From Eledone cirrhosa (lineage: Eukaryota): a stretch of 64,000 nucleotides of DNA. Positions 2,850 through 57,265 of the stretch are shown piece after piece; position 1 is the first letter of the stretch; each line of letters starts with the position of its first letter. Below the pieces are notes generated by a model, which was not told where the DNA came from, searched no databases, and saw nothing but the letters and a program-made list of their open reading frames with translations. Both the position numbers and the translations under genes were made by a program. The stretch is taken from positions 11,408,001-11,472,000 of the forward strand of contig OZ024756.1 in assembly GCA_964016885.1 (NCBI GenBank), written 5' to 3'.

Positions 2850-4340
2850 GAGATCGAATTGATCTAGATGAAATGCAGTTTGGGTTTGTGTCAGGTAAAA
2901 GTACCACATATGCTCTTTTCCTTGTACGACAACTACAGGGGAAGTACCTAGCCCTACAGACTTTAACAAGAGTTTAAGACTGGCTGCCCTTGGGAACTTC
3001 TATACGCAGATGATCTAACTCTCATAACTGAATCTATGGCTGAACTAGAGAAGAAATTCCAAACATGGAATCATGGCCTAGAATCAAAAGGCCTTAACTT
3101 GTCTAAGACTAAAGTTCTAGTATATAGAAAGTAAAATAGGGCACAGGTGCCCTCTGGGAAATGGCCATGCTCAGTGTGTAGGAAAGGAGTAGGTAGAAAT
3201 TCCATTCTATGTCCCACATGCAAACTATGGGTACATAAAGGTGTTAGTGGGTTCACAGGCAAGCTATCTAAGAACGTAGATTTTATATGTGGCCGATGCT
3301 CAGGTGCAATAAGTAGCAAGAACCCACTGGATACTAGCTCCTTCAACTGCCCAGATGGTTCTATAGAAATAGTAGACACTTTCTGTTAACTGGGTGACAA
3401 AATCAGCAGTGGAAGAGGGTACCCTGAAAGTACAGTAGCCAGAGTCAGAACGGGATGGAAAAAGTTCAGAGACCTTATACCGCTGTTGGCCACAAAAAGT
3501 TTCTCTCTAAAAATGATGCCTGCATACGAACAGCAATGTTACATGGCAGAGAGACATGGGCATTGCATGCAGAGGACCTGCGCAGACTGGAAAAGAACGA
3601 AGCATGCATGCTCCGTTGAATGTGTAATAGTAATATATGCAAACGGCAAAACATAAATGAACAAAGTGAGAAATTAGGAATAAGAGGTATCAGGTGCTGT
3701 TTACTTGAGAGAAGACTACGTTGGTATGATCACGTGATGCGCATGAAAGACGACAGCTGTATAAAAAAGTGCAGGGCGATCAAAATTGTTGGAAGTTACG
3801 GAGTAGGTAGACCTAGAAAAACCTGGGATGACTTGATAAATTCTGACCTTGCACACTTGCACTTCTCTGAGACAATCTCACTGGATCGAGATCTCTGGCA
3901 CCACACAGTAATACAGAAGACCCGCCTTCCCTACGTGCAATGTTCACCTACAGTCTGTAGGCCCCTCCAAACCAAACATATACCCCAACCCACTACCCCT
4001 ACTCCATCCTCCCACTCCCGCCAACACCAAAATTTCTCTATAAAGTTATGTTGGTACCACAACATCCAGTCCGAACTAATGAGGTCGTGTAGGTGTCATG
4101 ACAAAAAAACACACAGTCCACGCTGTAATGTGGTCGTGTAGGTAACACAGTAAAAAGGTCCCAGTCCATACTCTAATTGTGGTTGGTGTTAGGAAGGGCA
4201 TCCAGCCATAGAAAACCTGCCAGATAGTCCTATACAAGCGAGACACAGTCACTCGACCAGCCTTGCCTCAAGTGGGACAATTCTCGTCTAACCCATGCTA
4301 GCATGGAAGATGGACGTTAAACGATGATGATGATGATAAT
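2850..4340 (+). mobile_element. 5'-truncated, decayed RTE-clade LINE (RT, PHD-like finger, 3' UTR, (GAT)n tail)
   Basis: MQFGFVSGKST, ELLYADDL, KWPCSVCRKGVGRNSILCPTCKLWVH..FICGRC and ERRLRWY..GRPRKTW motifs with frameshifts and stops; tail gatggacgttaaacgatgatgat. Confidence 0.9.
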
Positions 4341-5019: not shown

Positions 5020-6231
5020 TCCAATGGCAAGGCTCCAGTTTGAGAGTTCAGGATCTGTGGGGAATGGGGAGTTACTCCTTAGTTGTTATCACTCCCTGTC
5101 TGCTCTGGCCCGGAGCAGTAGAACCTGTTAGGACCCCATTTATGGTTTAAATTATTACCTTACTCAAGTGGCGCCGGTAAGGTATTATCAACCATTGAAA
5201 AGAAATTTGGAGAGTATATTTAACAGCACTAGGGTTAGAGCCCCTAACTACATTGTCAAGGAGCAGTCTGGTCATTATGACTCTGCTGGTTTAGAACTGC
5301 CGGGAGGGGCAGCGGATGATGGAACGGCTGTCTCTTCCTGCAGAAGAGCCATTAAAATGGGCACTGTGAATGTGAAGACTGTTCGGATGCTGGAGAAGAG
5401 AGAGGACTTGAGTCATCTGTTCGAGGAGAGTGGTATGCAGATACTTGTGGCCCAAGAACACCGGATCCTACATAATGAGCCCGTGAAGAGATTGATGATT
5501 GGAAAGAGAAGCCAGCCATCACCACATTAGCAGTGAGGAACACAACAAATGCTGCAGTAGGAGGAGTGGGTTTTGTGTTCAGTGCAAAAACCAGTCTATT
5601 GGTGAGGGAAATCATACCTGTCTCCCCATAAGTGTTGAGGATAACCTTCAATGGAAACCCAAGGCTGACAATCATCTCAGCCTATAGTCCAACTGAGAGG
5701 GACAGTGATGTGAGCGCAGAGTATTACATGAGGAAGTGTGTAGAACTGTCAACACCGCACCAGCTCATAACATACTGCTTGTTCTGGGGGACTTCAATGC
5801 ACATCTGAGTAAGGAGAGCAGTGACTATCCTTGCTGGTACTTCCATAACAACACCAACCAAATTGGGAGACTTTTGAGGGACACCCTGCTGGAGGCGAAC
5901 TTGATAACAACCAACCTAAGGTTTAGGAAGAATCCGGGGAAGATGTGGATCTACGTCTCAGATATGCATCTGTCCAAGTCCCAGATTGATTTCATTCTGG
6001 TGAGGAAAAAGTGGTGGAATAGTGTTCTGCACACAAAACCATACAACTATTTCAGTACACTGGGCAGTGACCACCGGCTTGTTATGAGTGAGGTCCGGGT
6101 GAGTTTAAGAAAGACCAAGGCTCAGCCACGGAGAGCAATCTATGACTGGGGAGCTTTCAAGGAGGATGATAAGCTACAGGAGAGGTTCACAGTAGAAGTG
6201 AGGAACAGGTTCAGTGCTCTGTGTGGAGAGA

Positions 6232-6276
<45 letters not shown>

Positions 6277-8082
6277 GAGAGAGATGGGAGGGACTGAGGA
6301 GAGTGTGACGAGGAGGTACGGGTACTTCACCACTGCAGTGGCAGAAGCAAGTGAGGCCCTGGTGCTGAGGAGAGAGAAGAAGAGGAAGCACGTCAGCTCT
6401 GGAGACCCAAAAGAGTGTTCAGCCAGAGAACACCTGAAAGATGCCAAGGACCAATTCCATGCTGATCCTACAGAGGACAGGAAGGAAAATATGGAGGTGA
6501 TGAGGGAAGAACTCTGTACCGTTTACACTGAGGCCAAAGAGGAGGCACTGATGGAGAAGATCTGGAGTCTAGAGAGAGTGGTTGACAGGTGTAGGTGTAA
6601 AGAGAGCTGGACAATCATCAACGAGATCACAGGGAGCAATAGAAGGAGTTTGAGTCAGATCCAGGGAACAGGGCCCGAGGATAGGAAGAGGAAATGGCTG
6701 GACCATTTTAAGACCCTACCAGGAGAGCTACCTTCCACAGCCCAGAACACTGGGGAGATCAGGCAGTTGTTTGAGGAACTGGATATTGAAACAGGACACT
6801 TCGCCCAAGAGGAGCTTCAGAGAGCCAAGAAGATCAAGGAGGGCAAGGCCCATGGAGAAGATGGAGTGGCATCAGAGGTGATGAAGAGGTGTGATTTTGA
6901 TGATATCATCCTGGAGTTCTGTAACCAGGCACTGAAGAAGGGAGATCTCTCTAACACCAACAACTACAGGGGGGTATCACTGACATCACTTGTGGCAAAG
7001 ACCCTCAACAGGATGATTCTTAACAGGTTCCAGCCCAAAATGGAGAAGATCAGGGACAACCAGAATGGCTTCCGCGAGGGGAGATCAACTACTAGTCACA
7101 TCCTGATGCTGAGGAGAATTTTAGGAGGAGCTAGAGCAAAGATTCTGTGGACCAAGACTGCCTGATGAAGATCTTACAGGCTTATGGAAGACAGTGGACC
7201 TGATATCACTGCTCTACACCAACACCAGAGCCCAAGTCACTACACCTGATGGGATGGAGGAGTTCTTTGAGATACTGGCTTTGAGATACTGGGCAATACA
7301 TTGGCTCCCTGCCCTATTGTATGTTCCTTGCACTGGAGAAACACCTGGACTTGGGCTTTACTGTAGCACTGACTTAGAGCAACAGAATTAAGGCTAAACA
7401 GATAGATGCTGAATTTGTTGATGACATAGTTCTGGTGACAAACACAGTGAAGGAGGCAGAGGAGTTGATGCGAGAAGTGGAGGCCGTGTCAATGAGTGTG
7501 GAGCTGAGAATGAATGAGATTAAGATGAAGTATCTAATAGAGAATATTAAGAAGCCAGAGAAGAATATGAATATGGGTGGGGAGCCGCTAGAGTTGGTTG
7601 AGGACTTCCTGTATCTGGTAGCAAAGATTGGGAACACAGAGGATGATGTGGTGGAAAGGAAGAGCAAAGCCTGGGCAGCGTGCCACAGTTTGACGTTTGT
7701 GTGGAAGTCGGACCTTCGTAAAGACCTGAAGATCCGTCTCTTCATTGCTGTTGCGGAGTCTGTGCTGCTGAACGGGTGTGAGACTTGATGGTAGATGGGT
7801 GCTACACGAGAATGCTAAGGATGGCTCTAAACATTAATCAGTATACACTGAGGATGAAAAACTCAGAGCTGTATGGGAGCCTCCCAAAAGTCAGCTCGAA
7901 AGTGACACAGAGGAGACTGAGGTTGGCTGGACATGCTCACTGACATTCAGAGTTGACACTGCACTCAGTGCTCCTGTGGAAGCCCCTACACAGACACACT
8001 GGAAGAGGGAGACCTAGGATGACATATATTGATGCCCTAAGGACAGACACTGGTCCCTGGGAGAAGCAGGACATGGCAGCGA

Positions 8083-9790: not shown

Positions 9791-9793
<3 letters not shown>

Positions 9794-9996
9794 GGAACGA
9801 GTAGGACCCCGACGGCTGAGCTCAAGCCGTTTCGGCGGCTAATTCTGAACTAATTCAGTCCAGAATTAGCCGTCGAAACGGCTTGAGCTCAGCCGTCGGG
9901 GTCCTACTCGTTCCTATTACCCACTCTACTACCCTAAGTATTGAGTACTTTGGTGCGTTATGGTCCACCTGGTTCCTTACCACATTTCCTCCGTTA
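9791..9996 (+). mobile_element. Fold-back Penelope-like end (family A) with hammerhead 3' half
   Basis: Inverted arms about 9791-9847 and 9860-9916 plus an 80-bp tail; GAAA-CGGCT..AGCCG-TC-gggg; embedded in (TA)n. Confidence 0.7.
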
Positions 9997-10140: not shown

Positions 10141-10910
10141 AGCAATATTACATGGCAGTGAGACATGGGCATTGTGTGCAGAGGATATACACAGACTGGA
10201 GAGGAACGAAGCTTCCATGCTCCGTTGGATGTGTAATAGTAATATACGTAAACGGCAAAACATAAATGAACTAAGTGAGAAATTAGGAATAAGAGGGATC
10301 AGATGCTGTTTACTTGAGAGAAGACTACGTTGGTATGGTCACGTGATGCGCATGAAAGATGACAGCTGTATAAAAAAGTGCAGGGCGATCAAAATAGACA
10401 GTAGCTACGGTGTAGGTAGACCCAGAAAAACCTGGGACGACTTGATAAATTCCAACCTCACACATTTACACCTCTCCAAGACAATGTCACTGGACCGAGA
10501 TCTTTGGTGCTATGCAGTAATACAGAAGACCCGCTTTGTCTATGTACAAAGTGAAACCTACAGTCAGTGGGCACCTCTTAACCAAATATACACCCCCGTC
10601 CCACTACCCCTACCCACACCCCCATCAACACCACCCCTTTCTCTGTAAAGTTATATTGGTACCACAACATCCAGTCCGAAATAAATGATGTTGTGTAGGT
10701 GTCACGACAACAAAACACACAGTCCACACTGTATTGTGGCCGTGTAGGTAACACGGTAAAAACCTCCCAGTCCACACTGTAAACGTGGTTGGTGTTAGGA
10801 AGGGCAGGCAGTCCTGTATGAGCAAGACAACCAATCTTGCCTCACGTGGGACAATTCCCGTCTAAACCCATACTAGCGTGGAAGATAGACATTAAACGAT
10901 GATGATGATA
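10141..10910 (+). mobile_element. RTE LINE 3' fragment (same family as 2850-4340)
   Basis: [17 protein letters not shown]...RRLRWYGHVMRM...GRPRKTW, the same 3' UTR and a (GAT)n tail. Confidence 0.9.
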
Positions 10911-13285: not shown

Positions 13286-15396
13286 CATACTTCCTATAGT
13301 CTTATACGCCCTATAACACACTAAACATACACCCTATAGTCTTATACTATCTATAACACACTAAACATACTCCCTATAATCTTATACTCTCTATAACACA
13401 CTATACATACTTCCTATAGTCTTATACTCCTTATAACACACTAAACATACTTCCTATAGTCTTATACTCCTTATAACACACTAAACATACTTCCTATAGT
13501 CTTATACTCCTTATAACACACTAAACATACTTCCTATAGTCTTATACTCTCTATAACACACTATACATACTTCCTATAGTCTTATACTCCTTATAACACA
13601 CTAAACATACTTCCTATAGTCTTATACTCTCTATAACATACTATACATACTTCCTATAATTTTCTGTCTTATACTCTCTATAACACACTAAACATACTTC
13701 CTATAGCCTTATACTCTCTATAACACACTATACATACTTCCTATAGTCTTATACTCTCTATAACACACTAAACATACTTCCTATAGTCTTATACTCTCTA
13801 TAACACACTATACCTACTTCCTATAGTCTTATACTCTCTATAACACACTAAACATACTCCCTATAGTCTTATACTCTCTATAACACATTAAACATACTCC
13901 CTATAGTCTTATACTCACTATAACACACTATACATACTTCCTATAGACTTATACTCTCTATAACACACTAAACATACTCCCTATAGTCTTATACTCTCTA
14001 TAACACACTAAACATACTTCCTATAGTCTTCTACTCTCTATAACACACTAAACATACTTACTATATATAGTATTATACTCTCTATAACACACTAAACATA
14101 CTCCCTATAGTCTTATACTCTCTATAACACACTATACATACTTCCTATAGTCTTATACTCCCTATAACACACTATACATACTCCCTATAGTCTTATACTC
14201 CCTATAACACACTAAACATACTCCCTATAGTCTTATACTCTCTATAACACACTAAACATACTTCCTATAGTCTTCTACTCTCTATAACACACTAAACATA
14301 CTTACTATATATAGTATTATACTCTCTATAACACACTAAACATAGTCCCTATAGTCTTATACTCCCTATAACACACTAAAAATACTCCCTATAGTCTTAT
14401 ACTCTCTATAACACACTAAACATACTCCCTATAGTCTTATACTCTCTATAACACACTATACATACTTCCTATAGTCTTATACTCCCTATAACACACTAAA
14501 AATACTCCCTATAGTCTTATACTCTCTATAACACACTAAACATACTCCCTATAGTCTTATACTCTCTATAACACACTATACATACTTCCTATAGTCTTAT
14601 ACTCCCTATAACACACTATACATACTCCCTATAGTATTATACTCTCTATAACACACTAAACATAGTCCCTATAGTCTTATACTCCCTATAACACACTAAA
14701 AATACTCCCTATAGTCTTATACTATCTATAACACACTAAACATACTTCCTATAGTCTTATACTCTCTATAACACACTATACATACTTGTTATAGTCTTAT
14801 AATCCCTATAACACACTATACATACTTCCTATAGTCTTATACTCCCTATAACACACTAAACATACTTCCTATAGTCTTATACTCTCTATAACACACTATA
14901 CATACTTGTTATAGTCTTATACTCCCTATAACACACTATACATACTCCCTATAGTCTTATACTCCCGATAACACACTAAACATACTTCCTATAGTCTTAT
15001 ACTCCCTATAACACACTAAACATACTTCCTATAGTCTTATACTCCCTATAACACACTAAACATACTTCCTATAGTCTTATACTCCCTATAACACACTAAA
15101 CATACTCCCTATAGTCTTATACTCCCTATAACACACTAAACATACTTCCTATAGTCTTATACTCCCTATAACACACTATACATACTCCCTATAGTCTTAT
15201 ACTCCCTATAACACACTAAACATACTTCCTATAGTCTTATACTTCCTATAACACACTATACATACTCCCTATAGTCTTATACTCCCTATAACACACTATA
15301 CATACTTCCTATAGTACTATACTCTCTATAACACACTATACATACTTCCTATAGTACTATACTCTCTATAACACACTATACACACTCCCTCTATCC
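13286..15396. repeat. 40-bp minisatellite, about 52 copies
   Basis: Unit catacttcctatagtcttatactctctataacacactaaa. Confidence 0.97.
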
Positions 15397-15956: not shown

Positions 15957-16003
<47 letters not shown>

Positions 16004-16010
<7 letters not shown>

Positions 16011-16600
16011 GAAATAGCACTGAAAATATATTTAAGGGTCTGTTTTTTTTTTGTTTTTTTGATTCATCAAAGTGACATTATTGAAATAACGAGGGGGACA
16101 ATTTAAAAAAAAAAGGAGTATTATAATGTATTCAAAGTATATAAAGTATTACCTGTTTCTATGTATTAGTAAAATTCATCTTATCAAATGTTGAGTATTA
16201 CAATTAAAAAGAATTAATAAGGATTAAAAACTAAAAATTAAAGATTTAAAATTAAGTGTTGAGGTAAGTTTTTGCAATTTCCTTGTTGAGAAGGAGATTG
16301 TCTTTTTAGTTTTTAATCCTTATTAATTCTTTTTAATTGTAATACTCAACATTTGATAAGATGAATTTTACTAATATATAGAAACCGGTAATACTTTATA
16401 TACTTTAAATACATTATAAAACTCTTTTTTTTTTTAAAGAATTATCCCTCTCATTTTTTCAATAATGTCACTTTGACGAATCAAAGAAAGGAAAAAAAAA
16501 AAAAAAAGAAACAGACCCTTAAATATATTTTCAGTGCTGTTTCCAATCTCACTTTTTCTCTATAACCACTGTTTTGTATAGAACCTTACTTCCCTTTTCA
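16004..16600 (+). mobile_element. Long fold-back element (about 235-bp arms), probably a Penelope-like end
   Basis: Arms about 16004-16237 and 16303-16550, then a short tail before (TA)n; degenerate tgataag...gaaaccggta motif. Confidence 0.55.
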
Positions 16601-16691: not shown

Positions 16692-16792
16692 CCCCCCCCT
16701 TCCTGCTATATCAAGCTTTAACCTAATATATACCTTCCATATACTGTACCGATTGTGTTGTTATTTCTGTTTACCTTTTACATATATATATA

Positions 16793-16973
16793 TAACGAAG
16801 GAAATGTGGTAAGGAACCAGATGGACCATAACGCACCAAAGTACTCAATACTTAGGGTAGTAGAGTGGGTAATAGGAACGAGTAGGACCCCGACGGCAGA
16901 GCTCAAGCCGTTTCGACGGCTAATTCCGTCGAAACGGCTTGAGCTCTGCCGTCGGGGTCATACTTGTTCCTAT
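16793..16973 (-). mobile_element. Fold-back family A copy
   Basis: Reverse-complement match to 9791-9996 with a shorter loop (gacggctaattccgtc). Confidence 0.75.
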
Positions 16974-16990
16974 ATATATATATATATACA

Positions 16991-17350
16991 TTGTTATACT
17001 TTGGGAGGGTCATGCTGCCAATAAAAACACACGCACCTGTTGGTTTTTACTTCAATTCATTTTCTGGTTGGTTGGTTGGTTGGTTGGTTGGTTTGTTCAA
17101 TAACCCCATAGTTGTTTCTATATTGTGAAAGTTCTTTCATCACACATTCTGTTATGGATGGTTGGTTGGTTCCATAACACAATGTGTGAGGAAAGAGCTT
17201 TCACAATATATAAACAGCTATCAGGTTATCGAATCAACCAACCGGAAATTTATAATAAATTGAAGTCAAAACAATGGATGTATGTGTTTTTATTGGCAAC
17301 CTGACCCTCCCAAAGTATAACAATATCTGTTTCAACACATGTTTCCAGAA
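16991..17350 (+). mobile_element. Diverged fold-back element (family D)
   Basis: Arms ttgttatactttgggagggtca...tgttatgga and tccataaca...tgaccctcccaaagtataacaa; related fragments at about 12170 and 52770. Confidence 0.55.
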
Positions 17351-18225: not shown

Positions 18226-18418
18226 ATAGGAAAATGTTTGACCCGACGGCAGAGCTCAAGCCGTTTTGACGGCTATTTCTGGAGTCCAGAAATAGCCGTC
18301 GAAACAGCTTGAGCTCTGCCGTCGGGGTCAAACATTTTCCTATTACCCACTCTACTACTCTAAGTATTGAGTACTCTGGTGCGTTATGGTCCATCTGGTT
18401 CCTTACCACACCTCCTTC

Positions 18419-18422
<4 letters not shown>
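18226..18422 (+). mobile_element. Fold-back family A copy
   Basis: Arms ataggaaaatgtttgacccc... and ...ggggtcaaacattttcctat, with the same tail. Confidence 0.75.
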
Positions 18423-20966: not shown

Positions 20967-21667
20967 AAATTTACGATTTATTTTCTTAATCATTCTATAT
21001 ATATATCCAGGTATAAATGTCTTCTGTGTCGCCCTCTTCCAACTATCATATATATATTTTTTATCTCGACTCTATTCAGCGTGTGTGTTGTGTGTGTGTG
21101 TTTCTTGCTCATTGCTTGTGATTCTCGTCTGGAGGCTAACTTCCCGTCATTAGAGACAAGTGCTTGTTCCTCTCACTACACACTTTCACCACTCTGTCTT
21201 TCTCTCTCTCTCTCTCTTAGTTTTATTATTTTCTCTTTTCTTTCCGTCAACCAATTCTACCCCATTATCAATCTCTCTCTCTACACACACACAAATAATA
21301 TATATATATATATATAGACACACACAAATATACATATACACACACATATATATATACACACACACATACATTTACATACACATTTACACATATAGGCATA
21401 CATATATATAGATCTATACATACACACACAAGTTAAAAAAAGGTAATATTATCTCTCCAGCACCTGTGTTTCTCTTTCATTCTTTAATTGCATTTAAAAA
21501 ATAATTCTCCTTTCCGAAATCCATGTCAATATATTTTTACCTTCCGTCTTTTCGCCAATTTCACGTCACATCTCTTATAAATTTATATCACCTTTTCATT
21601 TTTGTTATTATTAAACATCCAATCTTGCTCTATTTCTTTCATTAATTCTCCAGTCCGCCTCGTATAC

Positions 21668-21716
<49 letters not shown>

Positions 21717-22970
21717 TTAAACTAATATATATATATATAATGTGTGCGTTTATAGCACCTTTATATTTCTATCGAGTTTTTAATCACCATCGACACGCAG
21801 CTAAAAAATAATATACATATATATATAATTGTTTCTACTTTTGGCACAAGGCCAGCAAATCAACCAGTGTATTACTGGTACTTTATTTTATCGACCCCCC
21901 TCCTATATAATAATATAAAATAAAATAAAATAAAGTAAAATGCCTGGCTCTCTCTCAGCTTGGCACCTCTTAGATCTTTCTCTGCCATATAAACTGCTTT
22001 ACTAACGAAGAAGCCCTACAAAGCTTGGCCAGTATTTTAGTTTCTGCCACCATACTACCATCGCAACATTTCGATACAGAGACGATATAAAAAAAAAAAA
22101 ACACACACCCCACATTCAATATTTTACTTTTTCTTTTATCGATTGAATTATTTTGTTGTTGATTTTTCTTCATTCTTTATTTCCTTTAATTCTGTGTTCC
22201 TCATTTTGGTATTGAAGAAGAAGAAAAAAAATAAGAACACATCAGTTTGAAAAGATATAAACAAACTAATTTTACTGTAACCCTCTACTCTCGATATATT
22301 ATTACATGATCTAGTATATATAATATATATATTAAATAATATACATTCCTTTCTACTCCATTTCCCTACTGTTCCAATATATATATATATATATATATAT
22401 ATTATACACACCTTTTGTATTTAAACCACATAAGCAACCTTTTGTTTTAACATATACTTCTAATAATGAATACTTGCGAGGATTCGTATAAAGCCAATTG
22501 TAGCTAAGATTATATATATATATATATATATATTAAAATATATATATTATATATATATAATTTTAACTACTAACATCCCAACTATATATATATATATTTA
22601 ATATAGAAATGACTTTTACAGGACTAAAACTGTTTCATCCGTGTGTATGTGTATATATATATATATATATGTGCCTGTATGTGTTTAATATATATATATA
22701 TATATATATAAATATATATATATGTAATTATATATATATATGTAATATATATATATAGTGTGGCAACATTTTTGTGCTTATAAAAACAAGCTCTATTGAT
22801 AACATATCAAAGCGGATGCGATGCAATTTCGTTTTTTTTTTCTTCCATTCTACCTACTTATAATTTACAGTAGAACTGTTTTCTGCAGAGTAAAAATCCC
22901 ACACAAATATATTTATGCACACAACTGCAATTACATATATACATGAAATTTTTGTACATGTTATAAAGAT

Positions 22971-23030
<60 letters not shown>

Positions 23031-23035
<5 letters not shown>

Positions 23036-23352
23036 CAAAATATTAATAAATGAAGACGTTCAGATAATCACAATATATGTTTTATTATATACATTTCGGA
23101 GGTACTGTGCTGTTTTTTCAGTACGTCCTCATCAGATAAAATATATTTTATCTGATGAGGACGTACTGAAAAAACAGCACAGTACCTCCGAAATGTATAT
23201 AATAAAACATATATTGTGATTATCTGAACGTCTTCATTTATTAATATTTTGAATAATATTAATAACTCCAGAAAACTTCCTTGTAGAGTGCTTTTAATCT
23301 ATTGTAAAACTATATTCATTGAGTAATCAATGAACGATATTAATCTTTGGTT
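23031..23352 (+). mobile_element. Near-perfect fold-back element with back-to-back hammerheads
   Basis: About 112-bp arms centred near 23143, then a tail ...aactccagaaaacttccttgtagagtgct...; flanked by TA repeats. Confidence 0.8.
23146..23207 (+). ncRNA. Type I hammerhead ribozyme motif (mirror copy on - strand at 23080-23141)
   Basis: ttttat-CTGATGA-GGAcGTACTG-aaaaaacagca-CAGTACcTCC-GAAA-tgtatata-ataaaa: stems I and II pair and the core is intact. Confidence 0.8.
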
Positions 23353-23427
23353 ATATATACATACATATATGTGTATATATATATACACCAGGTACGCTTT
23401 TCAACCCTTCTTTTTAATTATCATTTT

Positions 23428-23465
<38 letters not shown>

Positions 23466-24150
23466 AGGTAGAAATAGAAATTGCTTTCCATTTCAACCCG
23501 TCATTTTACTACGAAAACGTAGTTAAAACCTGTCATACATTTATAATTTTTTCTCTTTCCTTTCCTTTTTTTTGTTACAAGATCTCTTCCCCCTAGTTTT
23601 GCTTTCATATCATATATCCATCATTTTATAATAATTTCATTTCTACGGAATCTATTTCTGCGAGAGATCCTTTTTAAAAGTTAAGATAAACAAGAAATTA
23701 GAAATGTTTAAACGGTGAAACTGAAAAGCCATCACCCACCAAACACCTTTATCACACGTGTGGTCTTATTTACAATTTAATTAGACATTAGTACACGTGT
23801 GTATGTGTGAATGTAGAAGCCATGTGTGTCTGATGTATCTCTCAACATATTCCATTCAGCCTTTTACTTTAGGTTTTTTTTCCCCCCAGTTTATTCGTGA
23901 TTGAATTATAAAATGTGGGGGAGGGAACAAACCGAGAGAATCCTTTTATTCCTTATATTTAGCGGAAGGACTAGAAAATAATTTAGTTATTATTCAAATA
24001 TATTCAGACGTGTGTGTATGTGTGTTATTTTTCTTTCCCTCTTCCTGTTTACGATCAATTTTTCACATATTAGAAAAATGCTAAACCTCATAATTCATAA
24101 CACAAAAATGATTTTATAAATTACACCATTCACGTACGATTATTTCACCA

Positions 24151-24206
<56 letters not shown>

Positions 24207-24852
24207 GTATACACACTGATATATATATACATATACATACACATTGGTGTATATATATAACCATTTGGTTATTATGGCTCTAGATAATGTTTATTGAGCT
24301 TGCTTATTGAAAAACACAAAATTCTAAACATATTTGATATATTTTAATTCATTATTTGTGTGTGAGTATGTATATATAGATATATATAGTTTTCACCTGG
24401 GCATATATAATCTACCAGGAATTACTGCTATCTCCAGGTGCTTATAATTACGAGCTTGTCAAATGCTGTTTCTTATTGCATAAAAACCAATTGGTATATG
24501 CTTATTAAAGAAAACATCAACAAAATTGTAAAATAAAATATTGATTTGATTGGAATTGCTGAACGGAACTAAAACCTCGTGCATCATTGTCCCAATTTCT
24601 AGTGTTTATGTAATTGGAGTCTCGTTTATTACAGAATATTGAACATTCTCTCTCTGGAAGTTATTTTCCTCCATAGCAGTTAGAGTGGGAGCGGGGACGG
24701 GCTCTATTTCAGCCACAACCTTCCGTATACACACACACACATGTGCATGTGTGTATATATATATATATATATACACAGATAACTACATACATAAATTATT
24801 GTCAGAGAATACACAACCAAATTCTTGAAAAAAATATTTATTGGTTTACAAT

Positions 24853-24888
<36 letters not shown>

Positions 24889-25111
24889 CGTATGTATATG
24901 TGTGTGTGTGAATTACTGAAATCCGGTGCAAGCTTAGTAACTGGTGTATTTATTTATAAATTATATATGATTATATATAAAAATATACAAAAAATATTGT
25001 TTTATAATCACACTTTTCTTTTTCTTTTTTTAAAATCGAAGCCATTAATTCTTTCCCAGTCTTTCTAGCGGAAGGTTCGTGTGTAAAATATATTACTATT
25101 GGATCTCCGTC

Positions 25112-25876: not shown

Positions 25877-26385
25877 TATATATATGTATATATACATTTG
25901 CTTGTCACTTAAATTGTTTTTCTGTATTTTACCTGTATATGTATGCGTATATATGAATATATACATATATATATATACACGCATACATATACAGGTAATA
26001 TACAGAAAAACGATTTAAGTGACAAGCAAATGGTTTCAGTATACCTTTAGCGACTTCAGATATGATATAACCAAACTGAAAGGAGAAAAGAAAAGATATA
26101 GAACTGTGATAAGATAATGAAATCTTTCAAATAACGCAACACATAAGTGAACAACATATCAACAAATGACATGACTACAACCATACACAATCTTATAAAA
26201 ACAATATATAACATTGGAAACCAACCAATGAAATTGATGCTTATGGATAATCTAGCATGGACTTCATCTAATGGATATCAAACAAATATGAAAACTGAAA
26301 CAATCGTTCTGGCCTGGAGATCACATTAGCATGAAACTCAGAATGCAAGAAAATGAAGTCAGTTTAAGTAAACTTAACTCTATAA

Positions 26386-32491: not shown

Positions 32492-32575
32492 TACATAAAC
32501 ATATATATATATACATATACACATATACATATATATACATATACATAAACATATATATATACATATATACATATA

Positions 32576-32730
32576 CAATGTATTAACAAATGGAAACTAT
32601 ATTTATAAAACCATATTTATTTCATTATACATATTTCAAGGGCCACCAGAGCAAACTATGATTCGCTTTGATCAGATAAAATATAATATAGGTTAGTTTT
32701 GTATCCCAACAAATTAAATATAACCTCTAC
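32576..32730 (-). mobile_element. Family E Penelope-like arm, partial
   Basis: aaatggaaactatatttataaaaccatattta...tttcaaggg...atcagataaaat, as at 2330-2421. Confidence 0.55.
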
Positions 32731-33238
32731 ATATATACATATATATATATATATGGTGGCTGCCAACTCGTTTTCGAGTACGGCGACTACTTTATATCCA
32801 TGTAGGAGAACCCCTACCGATGCGCTGAACAAGTGTGACTTTTTAGTCCAGCCAGCGACTTGAAAACTCTGGTACAAACACTACACTTGTGACAATTATT
32901 GACACATAGTGCTGGGCCCATGGTACCATGTGACGACAAGTGCAGAGAGATCTCCAGATATAAAGCAATGCCTGTGCCGTGAAGCTTTTATAGGGAGCAA
33001 AGGCACTGCATAGGGTTGCAGGTGTTACATCAGAGTTTTCCTTCTAGAATTCTGCCTTGACAAAGGCTAAGGGGTCATGTCTCCTGGTGATTTTGGATGG
33101 CCATTGACTCTTAAGAGCTCCTTTGCCCTTTGACAGGTTTTGTTTTTAGTCCTGCAGGATGTCCAAAGTCACCCTCCTCACCAAGAAACCTTGGTGGGGT
33201 TGCCAGTTTAGTCGCCAACGACCCGACCATGAGACATA

Positions 33239-33683: not shown

Positions 33684-34574
33684 CAGGGTGTGGACGATAT
33701 TTGTTCGCAATTTTCAACTGCTAATTTTATGCAAATTCTTTTTACTTCCGTTGTCACTCTTGTCTTCATAAAAACAGTGACTATATTTCCATTATTTATT
33801 TTCAGAATAATTGATTATCAATAATTTTGAACCTCCAAATTTGTGGAAGAGACACGGAGTTCTTCTGGGAATCCGCACCGGGAGGACAAATAAGACTAGA
33901 AGATCAACTCCCAGAACAACAGGTGGCTCGCTGTCTCATCCAAAGACGTGCCCAGAGTCATGCAGACAAAGTTTCCCACAACAACATTGGTCTTAGGTGT
34001 CCTCAGCAGTCAAGGTGACATCATGCCACCTCACTTCTTCCCTGAGGGCCTCAAGCTGAACACCGATGGCTACATCTACGTTCTGAGCGAGGTAATAAAG
34101 CCCTGGATCGACCAGGTAGCTGCAGGTAGGCCGTACGTGTGGCGGCAAGACTCAGCGCCCTGCCAAACCAGCCAAAAGACCCAAGCCAGGCTGTCAGAGA
34201 ACTTCATCGACCACACTTCACCTGACATCTGGCCTCCCAGCTTGCCTGACTGCAACCCTCTCGACTTCTTTGTGTGGGGTGCAGTGGAACGAGACACCAA
34301 CAGATCTAGCTGCAATACGAAAGATGATCTGACGGCCAGGATCACAAGTGCCTTTAGGGGCCTAAGTCGGGGTCAGTGACGAAGGCCAGTAGCCGGTTCC
34401 GAGGCCGCTTTGAGGCTGTCATCAAAGCCAATGGCAGGTTTATTAAGGGAGATCGAAAGAACAAGTCATGAAGACAAACTGACCCAAGTTTGATAAATAT
34501 ATCTTAAAAAATAAAACTACTGTGTTATTTTTTCCTAGACAGTAATCTTGTGAACAAATATCGTCTGCACCCTG
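33684..34574 (+). mobile_element. DD37D (maT) transposon, internally deleted copy
   Basis: Same TIRs as 980-2267; about 415 bp deleted (HTH region and first catalytic D); remnant ORF at 33948-34379. Confidence 0.95.
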
Positions 34575-35744: not shown

Positions 35745-35984
35745 AAGTAAGAATATTTTCGAAACAGTGAGTGGGTTTGAAATTATTGGAAATGTAAGTA
35801 TTTTGACTAAAGAAATTAAAGAAATTATTTAGCCTGATAGTGGGGTTAAGAACCCTCGGAGAAATGGAAAAAGATGAGTATTGACGTACATGGGACGTTA
35901 ATACTCATCTTTTTCCATTTCTCCGAGGGTTCTTAACACCACTATCAGGCTAAATAATTTCTTTAATTTTTTTAGTCAAAATAC
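35745..35984 (-). mobile_element. Fold-back element (about 90-bp arms)
   Basis: Arms 35798-35888 and 35896-35984 are nearly perfect, with an unpaired tail on the left next to TA repeats. Confidence 0.55.

Positions 35985-36914: not shown

Positions 36915-36964
<50 letters not shown>
36520..36964. repeat. (TG)/(TA) compound microsatellite
   Basis: Seen directly. Confidence 0.95.
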
Positions 36965-36965
<1 letters not shown>

Positions 36966-37165
36966 TTTAATATAGATGAGATTCTACAGGACTAGAACTG
37001 TTTCATTCATTAGAAATCATCAGGAATCTGAGATTCCTGATGATTTCTAATGAATGAAACAGTTCTAGTCCTGTAGAATCTCATCTATATTAAAACTTTT
37101 ATACTCTGCTATGTATTGAGTACCTTACTTACTGTGGTTACCTCCGATTCAACCCGGAATAACGT
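36965..37165 (+). mobile_element. Fold-back Penelope-like end (family B)
   Basis: Perfect 65-bp arms around 37030, then a tail cttttatactctgctatgtattgagtacc...; flanked by TA repeats. Relatives at 42675-42767 and 22597-22640. Confidence 0.8.
37030..37082 (+). ncRNA. Type I hammerhead ribozyme motif (mirror copy on - strand at 36978-37029)
   Basis: GAGATTC-CTGATGA-tTTCtaatGAAt-GAAA-CAG-ttctagtc-CTG-TA-GAATCTC: a 7-bp stem I, a closed stem III and a GUA cleavage triplet. Stem II is weak. Confidence 0.75.
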
Positions 37166-41734: not shown

Positions 41735-43220
41735 TTTCCTTCTCTCTTCCCTTCCCTCCCTCTCTCTCTTTATCTCTCCCCTCTGTCTCTCTCTCTCTTC
41801 CCGCCCTCTCTTCCCTTCTCTCCCTCTCTCTCTTCCCGCCCTCTCTTCCCTTCTCTCCCTCTCTCTCTTCCCGCCCTCTCTTCCCTTCTCTCCCTCTCTT
41901 CCCTTCCTTCCCTCTCTCTTCCCTCACCCCTCTCTCTCCCCCTCTCTCTCTTACCCTCCCCCTCTCTCTCTTACCCTCCCCCTCTCTCTCTTACCCTCCC
42001 CCTCTCTCTCTTACCATCCCCCTCTCTCTCTTACCCTTCCCTCTCCCTCTCTCACCCTTCCCCTCTCTCTTACCATTCATTCCCCCTCTCTCTCTTCCCT
42101 TCGCTCTTTCTTCCCCCCCCTCTCTCCCGTCCCTCTCCCTATTCCCCCTCTCTTCCCTTCCCTCTCTCCCCTTCCCTCTCTCCCCCTCCCTTCCCGTCCC
42201 TCTCTCCTCCGTCTCCCTCTCCTTCCTGTCTTACTCTCTCTATTTCTGACGCCCACCCTGCTGTCTAATCCTCCCTCATTTTAATTCACTCCTCTCATTC
42301 ACCTTCCAAACTTCCCACTTTACCCCCCCCCCCCCCCTCATCTATAGCATCAAGTCTAACATGGAGTGCCATACCTACTGTTAAGTCACTCTATTGATCT
42401 GTTGTGATCAAAACCTCTGCTGAAAAAAATAGTAAGACATTGAACTGTTGAAGAACTAAACTCTGCCTTTTGTTTTCATTGTCCAACACACACACACACA
42501 CACACACTCACACTCACACTCACACACTCACTCACACTCACACACACACACACACTCACACTCAGACACACACACACACACACACACACTCAGACACACA
42601 CACACACGAGTCCCAAGTTCAATGGAGGATAACCACATTAAGGTACTCAATATGTTAGTAGAGTGTAAACATGTTTAATATAGAAATGGCTTCTACAGGA
42701 CTAGAATTGTTTCATTGAAAAGAAATCATCAGGTTTTCCTGATGATTTCTTTTGAATGAAACAGTTATCACATTCACCCCATCCCCCCCTCTCTCCCCCT
42801 CTCTCTTCCTCTCTCTCCCCCCTCTCTCTTCCTCTCTCTTCCTCTCTCTCCCCCTCTCTCTTCCTCTCTCTCCCCCTCTCTCTTCCTCTCTCTCCCCCCT
42901 CTCTCTTCCTCTCTCTCCCCCTCTCTCTTCCTCTCTCTCCCTCTCTCTTCCTCTCTCTTCCTCTCTCTCCCCCCCCTCCTCTCCCTTCCTCTCTCTCTCC
43001 CCCCTCTCTCTTCCTCTCTCTTCCTCTCTCTCCCCCTCTCTCTTCCTCTCTCTCCCCTCTCTCACCCCCCCCTCTCTTCCTCTCTCCCTCCCCCCTCTCT
43101 CTTCCTCTCTCTCCCTTCTCTCTTCCTCCCCCCTCTCTTCACCTCTCTCCCCATCTTCCCCCTCTCTCTTCCCCCCCTCTTCCTATCTCCCCCCCTCTCC
43201 CCATCTTTCTCTTCCCTTCC
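41735..43220. repeat. Polypyrimidine (CT-rich) tracts at 41735-42240 and 42780-43220, plus (CA)n
   Basis: Seen directly. Confidence 0.9.
42675..42767. mobile_element. Family B fold-back fragment
   Basis: ctgatgatttc...gaaaca on both strands around the loop aggttttcct. Confidence 0.6.
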
Positions 43221-43450: not shown

Positions 43451-43453
<3 letters not shown>

Positions 43454-43655
43454 GGAACCAGTAAGACCCCGACAGCTGAGCTCAAGCCGTTTCGACGGCT
43501 AATTCTGGACTAAATTTTAGTCCAGAATTAGCCGTCGAAATGGCTTGAGCTCAGCTGTCGGGGTCTTACTGGTTCCTAATACCCACTCTACTACCTCAAG
43601 TATTGAGTACTTTGGTGCGTTATGGTCCACCTGGTTCCTTACCACATTTCCTTCG

Positions 43656-43658
<3 letters not shown>
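43451..43658 (+). mobile_element. Fold-back family A copy
   Basis: Arms centred near 43515, the same tail, flanked by TA repeats. Confidence 0.75.
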
Positions 43659-43690
<32 letters not shown>

Positions 43691-43692
<2 letters not shown>

Positions 43693-44360
43693 ATGATATT
43701 CAATAAATGGAAACTATATTTATAAAACCATATTTATTTTATTATATACTAGCAGATGTACCCGGCGTTACTCGGGAAATGAATGACAGCCTGAATTGTT
43801 CAAGGTCGTTTATGCTTAGCTAGCAATTTCTGAGTGCATGTCAGCTAATTGGCTAGCCAATGAGAGGTTGCTTCAATAGCACGTGCCAAATCGGCCTAGT
43901 ACTTCAAAAGTTAAAAGGAGCCTAGTATTTGTACACAGACAGACAGACAGACACACACACACACACAGTCCGACTTGCTTTTATATATATAGATATTTCA
44001 AGGGTAGCAAAGCACTTTGGTACGCTTTCTTCAGATAAAATACAAAGTTTGTTTTATAAATAGAGACATACCCATGAAAAAAATACCTTATCGGTTGGAA
44101 ATTCACTGGATAGTCACTATCCAGTGAATTTCCAACCGATAAGGTATTTCTTTCATGGGTATGTCTCTATTTATAAAACAAACTTTGTATTTTATCTGAA
44201 GAAAGCATACCAATGTTTTGGTACCCTTGATATGTAATAAAATATATGTTTTTATAAATATAGTTTCCATTTATTGAATAGCATTGAATATTTCTTCCAG
44301 TAACTTGTTGAGTGCTCTAAATCAGTTATAAACATTTATTATTAAATACCACTTCTACTT
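43691..44360 (+). mobile_element. Fold-back family E copy interrupted by a Helitron
   Basis: Centre ggatagt-c-actatcc at 44115; CTGAAGA core variant on both arms; tail ...ttgagtgctct. Confidence 0.75.
43749..43993 (-). mobile_element. 245-bp non-autonomous Helitron
   Basis: Minus strand 5' TCTATATATATAAAAG ... hairpin CCCGagtaacgcCGGG then tacatctgCTAG-3'. It sits between A and T with no TSD, and removing it restores the family E sequence. Confidence 0.85.
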
Positions 44361-45135: not shown

Positions 45136-48100
45136 CCTCTCTCTCACACACTTTACCACCACCACCACCACCACCACCTCTCTCACACACTTTACCACCA
45201 CCACCACCATCTCTCTCTCACACACTTTACCACCACCACCACCACCACCATCTCTCTCTCACACACTTACCACCACCACCACCATCTCTCCTCACACACT
45301 TTACCACCACCACCACCATCTCTCTCTCACACACTTACCACCACCACCACCATCTCTCTCTCACACACTTTACCACCACCACCACCACCTCTCTCTCACA
45401 CAATTACCACCACCACCACCATCTCTCTCTCTCACACACTTTACCACCACCTCTACCACCATCTCTCTCTCACACACTTTACCACCACCACCACCACCAC
45501 CACCACCACCACCACCACCACCATCTCTCTCTCTCACACACTTTACCACCACCACCACCACCACCATCTCTCTCTCTCACACACTTTACCACCACCACCA
45601 CCACCACCATCTGTCTCTCTCACACACTTTACCACCACCACCGCCACCACCACCATCTCTCTCTCACACACTTACCACCACCACCACCATCTCTCTCTCT
45701 CACACACTTTACCACCACCACCACCATCTCTCTCTCTCACACACTTTACCACCACCACCACCACCACCATCTCTCACACACTTTACCACCACCACCACCA
45801 CCACCACTCTCTCTCACACACTTTACCACCACCACCACCATCTCTCTCTCTCTCTCTCACACACTTTACCACCACCACCACCATCTCTCTCTCTCTCTCT
45901 CTCACACACTTTACCACCACCACCACCATCTCTCTCTCTCACACACTTTACCACCACCTCCACCACCATCTCTCTCTCACACACTTTACCACCACCACCA
46001 CCACCACCATCTCTCTCTCTCACACACTTTACCACCACCACCACCACCACCATCTCTCTCTCACACTTTACCACCACCACCACCACCACCACCACCATCT
46101 CTCTCTCTCACACACTTTACCACCACCACCACCACCACCATCTCTCTCTCTCACACACTTTACCACCACCACCACCACCACCACCACCATCTCTCTCTCA
46201 CACACTTACCACCACCACCACCACCACCACCACCATCTCTCTCTTTCACTCACACACTTTACCACCACCACCACCACCACCACCACCACCACCACCACCA
46301 CCACCATCCTCTCTCTCACACACTTTACCACCACCACCACCATCTCTCTCTCACACACTTAACCACCACCACCACCATCTCTCTCTCACACACTTTACCA
46401 CCACCACCACTCTCTCTCACACACTTTACCACCACCACCACCATCTCTCTCTCTCACACACTTTACCACCACCACCACCATCTCTCTCTCTCACACACTT
46501 TACCACCACCTCCACCACCATCTCTCTCTCACACACTTTACCACCACCACCACCACCTCTCTCTCTCACACACTTTACCACCACCACCACCACCATCTCT
46601 CTCTCTCACACACTTTACCACCACCACCACCACCATCTCTCTCTCACACACTTTACCACCACCACCACCATCTCTCTCTCTCACACACTTTACCACCACC
46701 ACCACCACCACCATCTCTCACACACTTTACCACCACCACCACCACCACCACTCTCTCTCACACACTTTACCACCACCACCACCATCTCTCTCTCTCTCTC
46801 TCACACACTTTACCACCACCACCACCATCTCTCTCTCTCACACACTTTACCACCACCTCCACCACCATCTCTCTCTCACACACTTTACCACCACCACCAC
46901 CACCACCACCACCATCTCTCTCTCTCACACACTTTACCACCACCACCTCCACCACCATCTCTCTCTCACACACTTTACCACCACCACCACCATCTCTCTC
47001 TCTCACACACTTTACCACCACCACCACCACCACCATCTCTCTCTCACACTTTACCACCACCACCACCACCACCATCTCTCTCTCTCACACACTTTACCAC
47101 CACCACCACCACCACCACCATCTCTCTCTCTCACACACACTTTACCACCACCACCACCATCTCTCTCTCACACACTTTACCACCACCACCACCACCACCA
47201 TCTCTCTCTTTCACTCACACACTTTACCACCACCACCACCACCACCACCACCATCTCTCTCTTTCACTCACACACTTTACCACCACCACCACCACCACCA
47301 CCACCATCTCTCTCTTTCACTCACACACTTTACCACCACCACCACCACCACCACCACCATCTCTCTCTCTCACACACTTTACCACCACCACCACCACCAC
47401 CATCTCTCTCTCACACACTTAACCACCACCACCACCATCTCTCTCTCACACACTTTACCACCACCACCACTCTCTCTCACACACTTTACCACCACCACCA
47501 CCATCTCTCTCTCTCACACACTTTACCACCACCTCCACCACCATCTCTCTCTCACACACTTTACCACCACCACCACCACCTCTCTCTCTCACACACTTTA
47601 CCACCCCACCACTCTCTCTCACACACTTTACCACCACCACCACCACCTCTCTCTCTCACACACTTTACCACCACCACCACCACCATCTCTCTCTCTCACA
47701 CACTTTACCACCACCACCACCACCATCTCTCTCTCACACACTTTACCACCACCACCACCATCTCTCTCTCTCACACACTTAACCACCACCACCACCACCA
47801 CCACCATCTCTCACACACTTTACCACCACCACCACCACCACCACTCTCTCTCACACACTTTACCACCACCACCACCATCTCTCTCTCTCTCTCTCTCTCA
47901 CACACTTTACCACCACCACCACCATCTCTCTCTCTCACACACTTTACCACCACCTCCACCACCATCTCTCTCTCACACACTTTACCACCACCACCACCAC
48001 CACCACCACCATCTCTCTCTCTCACACACTTTACCACCACCTCCACCACCATCTCTCTCTCACACACTTTACCACCACCACCACCACCACCACCACCATC

Positions 48101-49960
48101 TCTCTCTCTCACACACTTTACCACCACCACCACTACCACCATCTCTCTCTCTCACACACTTTACCACCACCACCATCTCTCTCTCTCACACACTTTACCA
48201 CCACCACCACCACCACCACCACCATCTCTCTCTCACACACTTTACCACCACCACCACCATCTCTCTCTCACACACTTTACCACCACCACCACCATCTCTC
48301 TCTCTCACACACTTTACCACCACCACCACCACCATCTCTCTCTCACACACTTTACCACCACCACTCTCTCTCACACACTTTACCACCACCACCACCATCT
48401 CTCTCTCTCTCTCTCACACACACTTTACCACCACCACCACCACCACCACCACCACCATCTCTCTCTCTCACACACTTTACCACCACCTCCACCACCATCT
48501 CTCTCTCACACACTTTACCACCACCACCACCACCACCACCTCTCTCTCTCACACACTTTACCACCACCACCACCACCACCACCACCACCACCACCATCTC
48601 TCTCTCTCTCTCTCACACACTTTACCACCACCTCCACCACCATCTCTCTCTCTCTCACACACTTTACCACCTCCACCACCATCTCTCTCTCTCTCACACA
48701 CTTTACCACCACCACTACCACCATCTCTCTCTCACACACTTTACCACCACCACCACCACCATCTCTCTCTCACACACTTTACCACCACCACCACCATCTC
48801 TCTCTCACACGCTTTACCACCACCACCACCACCACCATCTCTCTCACACACTTTACCACCACCACCACCACCACCATCTCTCTCTCACACATTTTACCAC
48901 CACCACCACCACCATCTCTCTCTCACACACTTTACCACCACCACCACCACCAGCTCTCTCTCACACACTTTACCACCACCTCCACCACCATCTCTCTCTC
49001 ACACACTTTACCACCACCTCCACCACCATCTCTCTCACACACTTTACCACCACCACCACCACCACCACCACCACCACCACCACCACCTCTCTCTCTCACA
49101 CACTTTACCACCACCACCACCACCACCATCTCTCTCTCACACACTTTACCACCACCTCCACCACCATCTCTCTCTCTCTCACACACTTTACCACCTCCAC
49201 CACAATCTCTCTCTCTCTCACACTTTACCACCACCACCACCATCATCTCTCTCTCACACACTTTACCACCACCACCACCACCATCTCTCTCTCACACACT
49301 TTACCACCACCACCACCATCTCTCTCTCTCACACACTTTACCACCACCTCCACCACCATCTCTCTCTCTCTCTCTCTCACACACTTTACCACCTCCACCA
49401 CAATCTCTCTCTCTCTCACACACTTTACCACCACCACCACCACCATCATCTCTTTCTCACACACTTTACCACCACCACCACCACCATCTCTCTCTCACAC
49501 ACTTTACCACCACCACCACCATCTCTCTCTCTCTCTCACACACTTTACCACCACCTCCACCGCCATCTCTCTCTCACACACTTTACCACCACCACCACCA
49601 TCTCTCTCTCACACACTTTACCACCACCACCACCACCATCTCTCTCTCACACACTTTACCACCACCACCACCACCAGCTCTCTCTCACACACTTTACCAC
49701 CACCTCCACCACCATCTCTCTCTCACACACTTTACCACCACCACCACCACCTCTCTCTCTCACACACTTTACCACCACCTCCACCACCATCTCTCTCTCA
49801 CACACTTTACCACCACCTCCACCACCATCTCTCTCTCACACACTTTACCACCACCACCACCACCCTCTCACACACTTTACCACCACCTCCACCACCATCT
49901 CTCTCTCACACACTTTACCACCACCACCACCACCACCGTCACCACCACCACCACCACCAC
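45136..49960. repeat. 4.8-kb compound satellite (TC)n(AC)nTTTA(CCA)n
   Basis: Seen directly; monomer length varies, roughly 25-60 bp. Confidence 0.97.
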
Positions 49961-51690: not shown

Positions 51691-51913
51691 TAGTATATTT
51701 ATTTTCATTTTTAATCCTACAAATGCTACGTTTTGGCCTATAAGTTCCTTTGGGTCGCCTTTATGGATCCCTGGAAGAGGTGGGGTGGAGTCAATGTCGA
51801 TTATTTTGGGGTCCCCCTGTTTTATTGTATATATATGTATATATCCAAACGGAACCTGAACCGATAAGCTCTGGTTTCTGGGGTATGTCACTATTTATAA
51901 AACAAATTTTGTA

Positions 51914-51971
51914 TTTTATCTGATGAGGGCATACCAACATTTTTGGTACTCTTGAAATATATATAATAGAA
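51914..51971 (+). ncRNA. Hammerhead motif in a family E element (51855-52515)
   Basis: ttttat-CTGATGA-gggcataccaacatttttggtactctt-GAAA-tatatata-atagaa. Confidence 0.6.
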
Positions 51972-52013
51972 TAAATATGGTTTTATAAATATACTTTCCA
52001 TTTATTAATATCA

Positions 52014-52429: not shown

Positions 52430-52808
52430 TTGATATTATACTCCAGGAAAGCTGTTGAGTGCTTCGAATCTGTTATAAATAAATTTGTTGAATTACCAAC
52501 AAATTAGATATCTCTCTGTGTGTGTGTATATATATATTTGTTTTTGATATGAAATTGTGTGTCGAAAGAAATATTGATGATGTTGCAGATGTGCAACGAA
52601 AGAACTTTGTTAGACTATATATATATATTTATATCTGTATTTTTGACCGTTGGTCACTCAATGATAAACATTGATGGCCGAATGAATTAACTATGGAGAT
52701 ATAAAAGATACAGAAGCGAAACCAGCCAAGCAGTGAATGTGTTCTGTTATTATTTCTGGCAATAGTATTACAACAATATGACCCTCCCCAAATATAACAA
52801 TATATATA

Positions 52809-57256: not shown

Positions 57257-57265
57257 ATATATATG

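Follow-up and report, generated by a model that had tools for sequence, protein, structure and literature searches.

The window analysed here, a stretch of 64,000 nucleotides of Eledone cirrhosa DNA, contains a palindrome at 23028-23259 in which, by a base-by-base check, all 116 bases on one side of 23143|23144 are complementary to those on the other (116/116). With two mismatches tolerated, the arms extend to 121 bp at 98%. An earlier note on this DNA had described near-perfect arms of 112 bp in (TA)n, a description that holds and slightly understates the structure; the interval that it assigned to the insertion also took in a one-sided 93-bp tail, which it did not name. Four perfect, non-simple palindromes with arms of at least 30 bp occur in the window, versus none in each of five shuffles. 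On the left, the insertion abuts a (TA)28 microsatellite (22975-23031) that is likely to be the left part of the target site, its last four bases being ambiguous with the arm. The left arm (23028-23143, minus strand) is an inverted, 5'-truncated and tail-less copy of a terminal repeat, and its outer end matches the base at which copies of its repeat family, termed family A below, stop and enter (AT)n. The arms meet with a 0-nt spacer at the palindrome centre (23140-23147), in an AAAA-TATA-TTTT context that coincides with the first base of hammerhead stem I. The right arm (23144-23259, plus strand) is a direct, 5'-truncated copy of the same terminal repeat and lacks ~72 upstream bases that are present in three other copies. 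It alone is followed by the tail (23260-23352, plus strand), beyond which an AT-type microsatellite (23353-23385) forms the right part of the likely target site. The absence of any difference across the 116 bases places the divergence of the arms below 2.6% (95% bound), barring conversion that keeps the arms alike.

Each arm carries a type I hammerhead motif, identified with a sequence descriptor built for this analysis. In the right-arm motif (23144-23209, plus strand), the 5' strand of stem I (23144-23151) is followed by CTGATGA (23152-23158), by stem II (23159-23189) with nine pairs, one C.C mismatch and an 11-nt loop, by GAAA (23190-23193), and by a self-complementary stem III (23193-23200) that includes a G.U and amounts to a helix III of two pairs as a monomer. 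Cleavage is predicted after A23201, with the 3' strand of stem I running from 23202 to 23207-23209 (6-8 pairs); in the family, stem I is 8 bp long and begins at 23144. The left-arm motif (23078-23143, minus strand) is its mirror image, with the core starting at 23135 and a predicted cut after 23086. The conserved core (CUGANGA, GAAA and UH) and the three helices are thus present in both focal motifs, which bears out, as far as sequence goes, the earlier claim of a complete type I core in each arm. When hits in the window were counted against 200 local dinucleotide shuffles, the descriptor gave nine matches, compared with a mean of 0.02 and a maximum of one in the shuffles. Three of the matches, at 16660 (+), 55638 (-) and 56592 (-), belong to other repeat families. 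A check with Rfam hammerhead models, which the earlier note had proposed, returned no hammerhead at the locus or in the window: none of the 40 matches at E<=1 in 21500-25000 and none of the four gathering-score matches in the whole window was to a hammerhead, and none of the nine descriptor hits, the right-arm motif included, reached gathering score. The Rfam matches to microRNA-type hairpins fell below gathering score, and any long hairpin produces such matches; a microRNA precursor at the locus was rejected. The family hammerhead pattern had no matches in metagenome, viral and prokaryote contig collections.

The focal palindrome belongs to a multi-copy, hammerhead-bearing repeat family. At >=80% likeness, 23144-23353 is covered by 2087 contigs in run X1 and by 1745 and 1582 reads in runs X21 and X22, respectively, and no family contigs or reads in these three runs cover 23354-23430; the last base with coverage is at about 23353, and depth from 23354 onwards is zero. 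The three runs are from organism A, with X21 and X22 being RAD-read samples from one study and X1 perhaps the source sample, and summed contig depth and RAD reads of this kind do not yield a copy number for family A. In run X4 (organism B, share 0.14), no contig matched 23144-23430. Two 3' ends of family A emerge from these data. One is the tail end (~23353), where depth ceases; the other is the arm end (23259), beyond which 213 and 258 reads, together with 18 contigs, continue into loose (AT)n. Therefore, both outer ends of the focal insertion, one tailed and one tail-less, are family-wide. Many reads also run past the end of the covered stretch (915 of 1745 in X21 and 842 of 1582 in X22), and since depth on the right is zero, this overrun must lie upstream of 23144, so that most copies are longer than the focal one at the 5' end.

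Variation within the family respects the hammerhead. Among the read variants listed (40 of 68), which occupy 36 places, 11 places lie inside the motif. Loop II accounts for five of these and the stems for another five, where every change keeps or improves pairing; the remaining one is N7, and the 12 fixed core positions have none. In five arms from the window, 89.0% of cells are paired, versus 39-56% in slid controls, and five of the nine stem II pairs have changed on both sides, an outcome reached in 1 of 500 shuffles. In each of these five pairs it is the focal copy that differs from the other four, which reduces them to one lineage split and, effectively, to one comparison. Taken together, these patterns indicate a hammerhead sequence that is constrained across the family, not at the focal locus. 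The earlier note had named a lack of core conservation and of stem covariation as evidence that would count against its reading; instead, the listed variants spare the core and stem II covaries. Older copies do decay, with the core broken in two of the four other window arms that hold a whole motif (G8 changed at 32675, minus strand; GAAA changed at 44188, plus strand) and the motif of a fifth other arm interrupted by an insertion. The focal locus is likely one young copy among many, and nothing points to selection acting on it.

The window contains four further insertions that are related to the focal copy, with ~70% identity. The first (2310-2663) is an asymmetric palindrome in (TA)n that consists of a long, tail-less minus arm with a whole hammerhead and a short plus arm that begins within stem II and carries an 84-bp tail. 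At 32570-32735, a decayed minus arm that starts from the stem I edge, with G8 of its core changed, is joined to a scrap of tail. The third insertion (43690-44358) is a palindrome with a 1-nt spacer in which both arms reach the upstream end, the left arm holds a later insertion and the right core is changed. The fourth (51843-52510, plus strand) is a single direct copy with a hammerhead and a tail, split by a later insertion. The insertions that interrupt these last two copies (43750-43990 and 52013-52428) both start with CTAGCAG and end near TAGAT, and may be Helitron-like.

The same build recurs beyond family A. The window contains 15 close inverted repeats, nine of which fall into three tailed families: A (three), B (four) and C (two). 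Six of these nine palindromes adjoin (TA)n at one arm, and beyond their other arm comes a tail whose length is constant within the family, with values of 84 and 92 bp in family A (92-93 bp in the focal copy), 77, 77 and 78 bp in family B, and 61 bp in family C; the remaining three are interrupted or lack one flank. All ten aligned tails have ACTC (CTTC in one copy) and then GAGT(A/G)C just past the arm end, a motif common to the three families that in the focal tail places ACTC at 23265-23268 and GAGT at 23286-23289. The listed read variants there leave both words untouched and lie between them or to either side. The motif may be a signal at which the mobilising protein binds or starts. Family C comprises 36957-37165, 42617-42766 and a fragment at 22597-22638, and the palindrome within the first of these (36957-37103) is the second in the window with two whole, back-to-back type I hammerhead motifs; its stem II is short and its stem III long, a single nucleotide separates the arms at the edge of stem I, and it carries the 61-bp tail. 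Family B consists of four near-identical palindromes (9791-9995, 16789-16973, 18226-18421 and 43452-43657) with tails of 77-78 bp. Their arms appear to hold the 3' half of a hammerhead only (GAAAC, a stem and GTC, without CTGANGA), their centres cluster within ~10 bases, and the family B pattern had no matches in metagenome contigs. Six more close inverted repeats, with arms 84-97% identical, lie at 15993-16561, 16990-17324, 25895-26032, 35798-35984, 56095-56392 and 57142-57261. The paired arms of the three tailed families add up to 1298 bases, or 2.0% of the window; those of all 15 repeats add up to 2766 bases (4.3%). In palindromes of the focal build, arm identity ranges from 83/83 down to 128/153 and is 104/119 in another of the older ones.

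Other repeats in the window are of RTE, tRNA-derived and Tc1/mariner types. Tc1/mariner-type transposase frames lie at 1107-2021 (79% identical to the best database relative) and 33900-34376, and broken non-LTR retrotransposon frames with AP endonuclease and reverse transcriptase (RT) regions lie at 5132-7800, 2967-4138 and 10142-10645, with a PHD finger in one piece. The four gathering-score Rfam matches are weak ones to tRNA (31612, 38236, 52811 and 56983) and are likely heads of tRNA-derived SINEs. Long minisatellites occupy 13286-15390 (40 bp period), 45139-49937 (~38 bp) and 58142-64000 (42 bp), the last being 97% homogeneous over 139 copies and running off the window.

The anatomy of the focal insertion is that of a Penelope-like element (PLE). 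PLE insertions are described as heavily truncated on the 5' side, where a shortened copy in inverse orientation is frequently attached; one of their ends bears a tail of 30-40 bp, and (TA)n is a favoured target (PMC8557442). The terminal repeats (pLTRs) of metazoan PLEs carry minimal hammerheads with a long helix II and a palindromic helix III, and such minimal hammerheads occur as thousands of dispersed singles and as opposite-strand pairs 100-700 bp apart (PMC4209133). The focal insertion combines an inverted, 5'-truncated copy at its 5' end, a tail on one end only, a hammerhead in the terminal repeat and insertion into (TA)n, with no target duplication discernible there. PLE membership is argued from anatomy. 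As for the defining frame with RT and GIY-YIG, Pfam found GIY-YIG in none of 372 window frames (all non-simple frames of >=45 residues), and none of its three RVT_1 matches in the window lies beside focal-type repeats; nor does the window hold a full-length copy in which direct, partly tandem pLTRs could flank such a frame. This anatomy supports the earlier reading of the locus as a Penelope-like sequence with a minimal, dimer-type hammerhead pLTR in inverted copy, and a PLE origin of the focal repeat is very probable. The fuller description, of a young pLTR stump arranged head to head with a one-sided tail in (TA)n, whose ribozyme motifs are predicted to be inactive where they lie, is one that we consider probable. 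In the parent element, the hammerhead would have served as a dimer through its palindromic stem III.

How the two arms came to face each other can be addressed by comparing the insertions. In the model that we propose, the GIY-YIG endonuclease of the parent element would nick both strands of the (TA)n run, and reverse transcription of pLTR RNA would be primed from each side, at the tail end (23352) on one side and at the arm end (23259) on the other. Both cDNAs would halt at the 5' edge of the hammerhead, where stem I begins, and be joined head to head at TATA. The presence of two ribozyme motifs would then be a by-product of the duplication of the terminal repeat. A PLE protein has been reported to cut and extend both strands of AT-rich DNA; it begins reverse transcription from a pair of internal positions on either side of the tail, and hammerhead cleavage is dispensable (PMC11167929). 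The arms do not begin at scattered points: families A and C offer 12 readable arms, of which seven (from four insertions) start <=10 bases upstream of the core, four (from three insertions) start at -78 to -81 and one starts inside stem II.

A possible alternative retains the PLE origin and has the mirror arm made by fold-back at a short AT hairpin, where a tail-primed cDNA would copy itself to 23259 and be resolved by the endonuclease, or by conversion of one arm to the other. Self-priming is the published explanation for palindromes at the junctions of inverted, head-to-head pLTRs (PMC3846280), and the 0-nt spacer within AAAA-TATA-TTTT suits it. Both focal arms also have family-rare bases at three positions: 23195 (G, ~0.3% of X1 depth), 23216 (G) and 23224 (C), the last two at ~0.1-0.2%. 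For this, the arms must either derive from a single RNA or locus or have been made alike by fold-back or by subsequent conversion; the 116/116 identity, including these alleles, fits fold-back or conversion at least as well as it fits two cDNAs. However, the other copies argue against a fold-back. In the copy at 2310, the tailed arm begins only within stem II, whereas its tail-less partner reaches 81 bases beyond the core on the upstream side; >100 bases of the tail-less arm are thus absent from the tailed arm and cannot have been copied from it. The copy at 32570 is similarly lopsided, with its tail-less arm the longer, and the 1-nt spacers of the copies at 43995 and 36957 are impossible by snap-back of a single cDNA. 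Conversion, in turn, is not strong in these families, given that older palindromes have arm identities as low as 128/153 and 104/119. On balance, we lean towards two separately primed cDNAs rather than a fold-back. The extra base at the join of the copy at 43995 may, speculatively, have been copied from a cap. The centre joint itself (23144 back onto 23144) was not among the joints listed for the four runs, with ~900 reads per RAD run over the first bases. Palindromes may be lost in such read libraries.

A second alternative, somewhat doubtful in our view, is that family A is a self-standing, non-autonomous mini-element of ~280 bp, similar to a retrozyme or a SINE, that is moved in trans by a PLE protein. 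A common 5' end lies ~80 bases upstream of the core in the copies at 2496 (minus strand), 44116 (both arms) and ~51843; three of these four arms, from two insertions, start at the same ACTATCC, and no copy in the window extends into coding sequence. About 25 bases past the shared 5' end, two family A insertions have AAG|GTAT, a possible splice donor of a short intron. A short intron is known for Penelope. Animal retrozymes have been reported as non-autonomous PLE derivatives (10.64898/2026.07.22.740005), which is in keeping with a mini-element, but a full-length RNA on which reverse transcription began inside the 5' pLTR would produce an equally fixed 5' end, as we infer from the reported internal start sites (PMC11167929). 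The 64-kb window also contains no tandem, head-to-tail hammerhead array, and on this ground a tandem retrozyme was rejected.

Returning to the PLE stump, its arrangement has consequences for any RNA made from it. The earlier observation that a transcript from either strand would hold one ribozyme and its own antisense was correct, and because the arms are head to head, the antisense arm would be transcribed before the ribozyme on either strand. The suggestion that this forms a self-silencing switch, in which the RNA alternates between a long hairpin and an active ribozyme, is not supported. Both cores are intact in sequence, which such a switch would need, but RNA transcribed through the locus in either direction would form a hairpin of 114 bp in which the hammerhead is buried, with a predicted energy of -192.0 kcal/mol versus -101.8 kcal/mol for the best fold that keeps the hammerhead (a difference of ~90 kcal/mol). 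The hairpin is predicted to form during transcription: once the core has been synthesised, the left arm already holds 13 of the 15 right-arm bases in pairs, and at the cut site 56 of 58. Even the arm and tail on their own are predicted to prefer another fold, by 10 kcal/mol (-35.4 versus -25.4 kcal/mol). Motifs on opposite strands cannot be dimer partners within one RNA, and a stem III dimer (-3.2 kcal/mol) is predicted to be far weaker than the duplex of sense and antisense motifs (-109.7 kcal/mol). In addition, PLE minimal hammerheads are reported to be inactive as monomers and of low activity as dimers (PMC4209133), and the cores broken in two of the four other window arms with a whole motif speak against a maintained function. 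Two-way promoters have been proposed for pLTRs (PMC3846280), and a transcript initiated at the centre, without the antisense arm, could escape the hairpin, but the focal copy is missing the upstream segment in which such a start would lie. The modelled energetics thus describe a lock rather than a switch; it is highly likely that the locus has no switch function, and a functional switch appears very improbable.

Two further explanations can be set aside with little hesitation. A palindromic MITE or fold-back DNA transposon with a TA target preference would account for a perfect inverted repeat in a TA context, in a window that has a Tc1/mariner-type transposase frame (1107-2021), but it is largely refuted by the asymmetric ends, the centres that vary among copies, the single direct copies and the constrained hammerhead, there being neither symmetric terminal inverted repeats nor a fixed internal structure; we hold it to be most unlikely. 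An assembly artefact, in which a chimeric long read mirrored a single copy, is equally hard to credit: the 100% arm identity, the centre joint unseen in reads and the fact that no listed contig spans the stretch would fit it, but the mirror stops at the family (AT)n end and does not enter unique flank, and palindromes of the same build are found at all ages (83/83 to 128/153 arm identity).

As a PLE stump, the focal locus is unremarkable, a single young example of an insertion type on record for PLEs, and every anatomical feature of it is already in print for these elements. An octopus repeat library, or the supplement of the study that reported 31 recently active Penelope-like families in Octopus vulgaris (PMC13282606), may already annotate family A; the main text of that study makes no mention of hammerheads or palindromes. 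The value of the locus is as material, since it belongs to a dense set of short, datable palindromes with readable junctions, two 3' ends and a shared tail motif. Such palindromes bear on how PLE inverted copies are built and on the role of the hammerhead, questions described as open (PMC8557442, PMC11167929). Our additions are modest and comprise the tails of 61-93 bp, the ACTC/GAGT motif common to three families and junctions that favour two cDNAs; a limited search of the PLE literature did not find the longer tails or the shared motif.

If the locus is transcribed, it would plausibly provide double-stranded RNA (dsRNA) or an A-to-I editing substrate. Octopus has been reported to have exceptionally high potential for near-perfect dsRNA, with the source repeats unnamed in the available text of that report (PMC5625713), and transcribed loci of this kind would be candidate contributors to the surplus of near-perfect dsRNA, so far unexplained, that underlies cephalopod hyper-editing. 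That PLE stumps supply much of the octopus dsRNA potential is a guess from one window, and the available text of a bioRxiv editing survey (10.1101/2020.01.19.911685) contains nothing on palindromes or Penelope. A broader proposal would hold that the hammerhead fold, not the cut, sets the ends of PLE cDNAs, that two-sided priming turns such ends into hairpins, and that it does so frequently enough for PLE stumps to be a main source of self-folding dsRNA and A-to-I hyper-editing in the genome. We consider this combination improbable; if true, hairpins from PLE stumps would explain the high octopus dsRNA potential (PMC5625713).

Among known systems, the closest are the 5'-truncated, endonuclease-positive PLE insertions (PMC8557442, PMC3846280), which share with the focal locus the inverted truncated copy, the palindromic junction, the one-ended tail and the AT-microsatellite target, as well as a terminal repeat that here measures ~190 bp from the upstream end to the arm end. 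The tails here are longer, at 84-93 bp in family A and 61 and 77-78 bp in the neighbour families, compared with the 30-40 bp published for PLEs (PMC8557442). The focal-type copies seen have no open frame; they do have a hammerhead, which sets them apart from Naiad as described (PMC8557442). With the minimal hammerheads of metazoan PLEs (PMC4209133, PMC6765202), the focal motifs have in common the CUGANGA/GAAA core, the long helix II, the palindromic helix III that needs a second copy, and the occurrence as dispersed singles and opposite-strand pairs. In contrast, they have a helix II of nine pairs with a conserved C.C mismatch and a helix I of 6-8 pairs, both as predicted, and they start 16 bases apart rather than at the 100-700 bp reported (PMC4209133).

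The Poseidon PLE of Anolis (PAc), studied in vitro (PMC11167929), offers a likeness in its AT-rich target, its two discrete 3' ends that bracket the tail, a short stem-loop motif near the 3' ends and a hammerhead in the terminal repeat, whereas the tail here is longer and the focal repeat is known from sequence. Non-LTR retrozymes (10.64898/2026.07.22.740005) are likewise short, non-coding, related to PLEs and equipped with a type I hammerhead, but are made of head-to-tail tandem units, while copies of the focal type are dispersed and the focal locus is head to head. The palindromic Harbinger repeat of Xenopus, an ADAR substrate (PMC5625713), resembles the focal palindrome in being ~200 bp long and self-folding, with no need of an inverted neighbour; it is a DNA transposon with a palindromic consensus, whereas the focal palindrome was apparently built at insertion.
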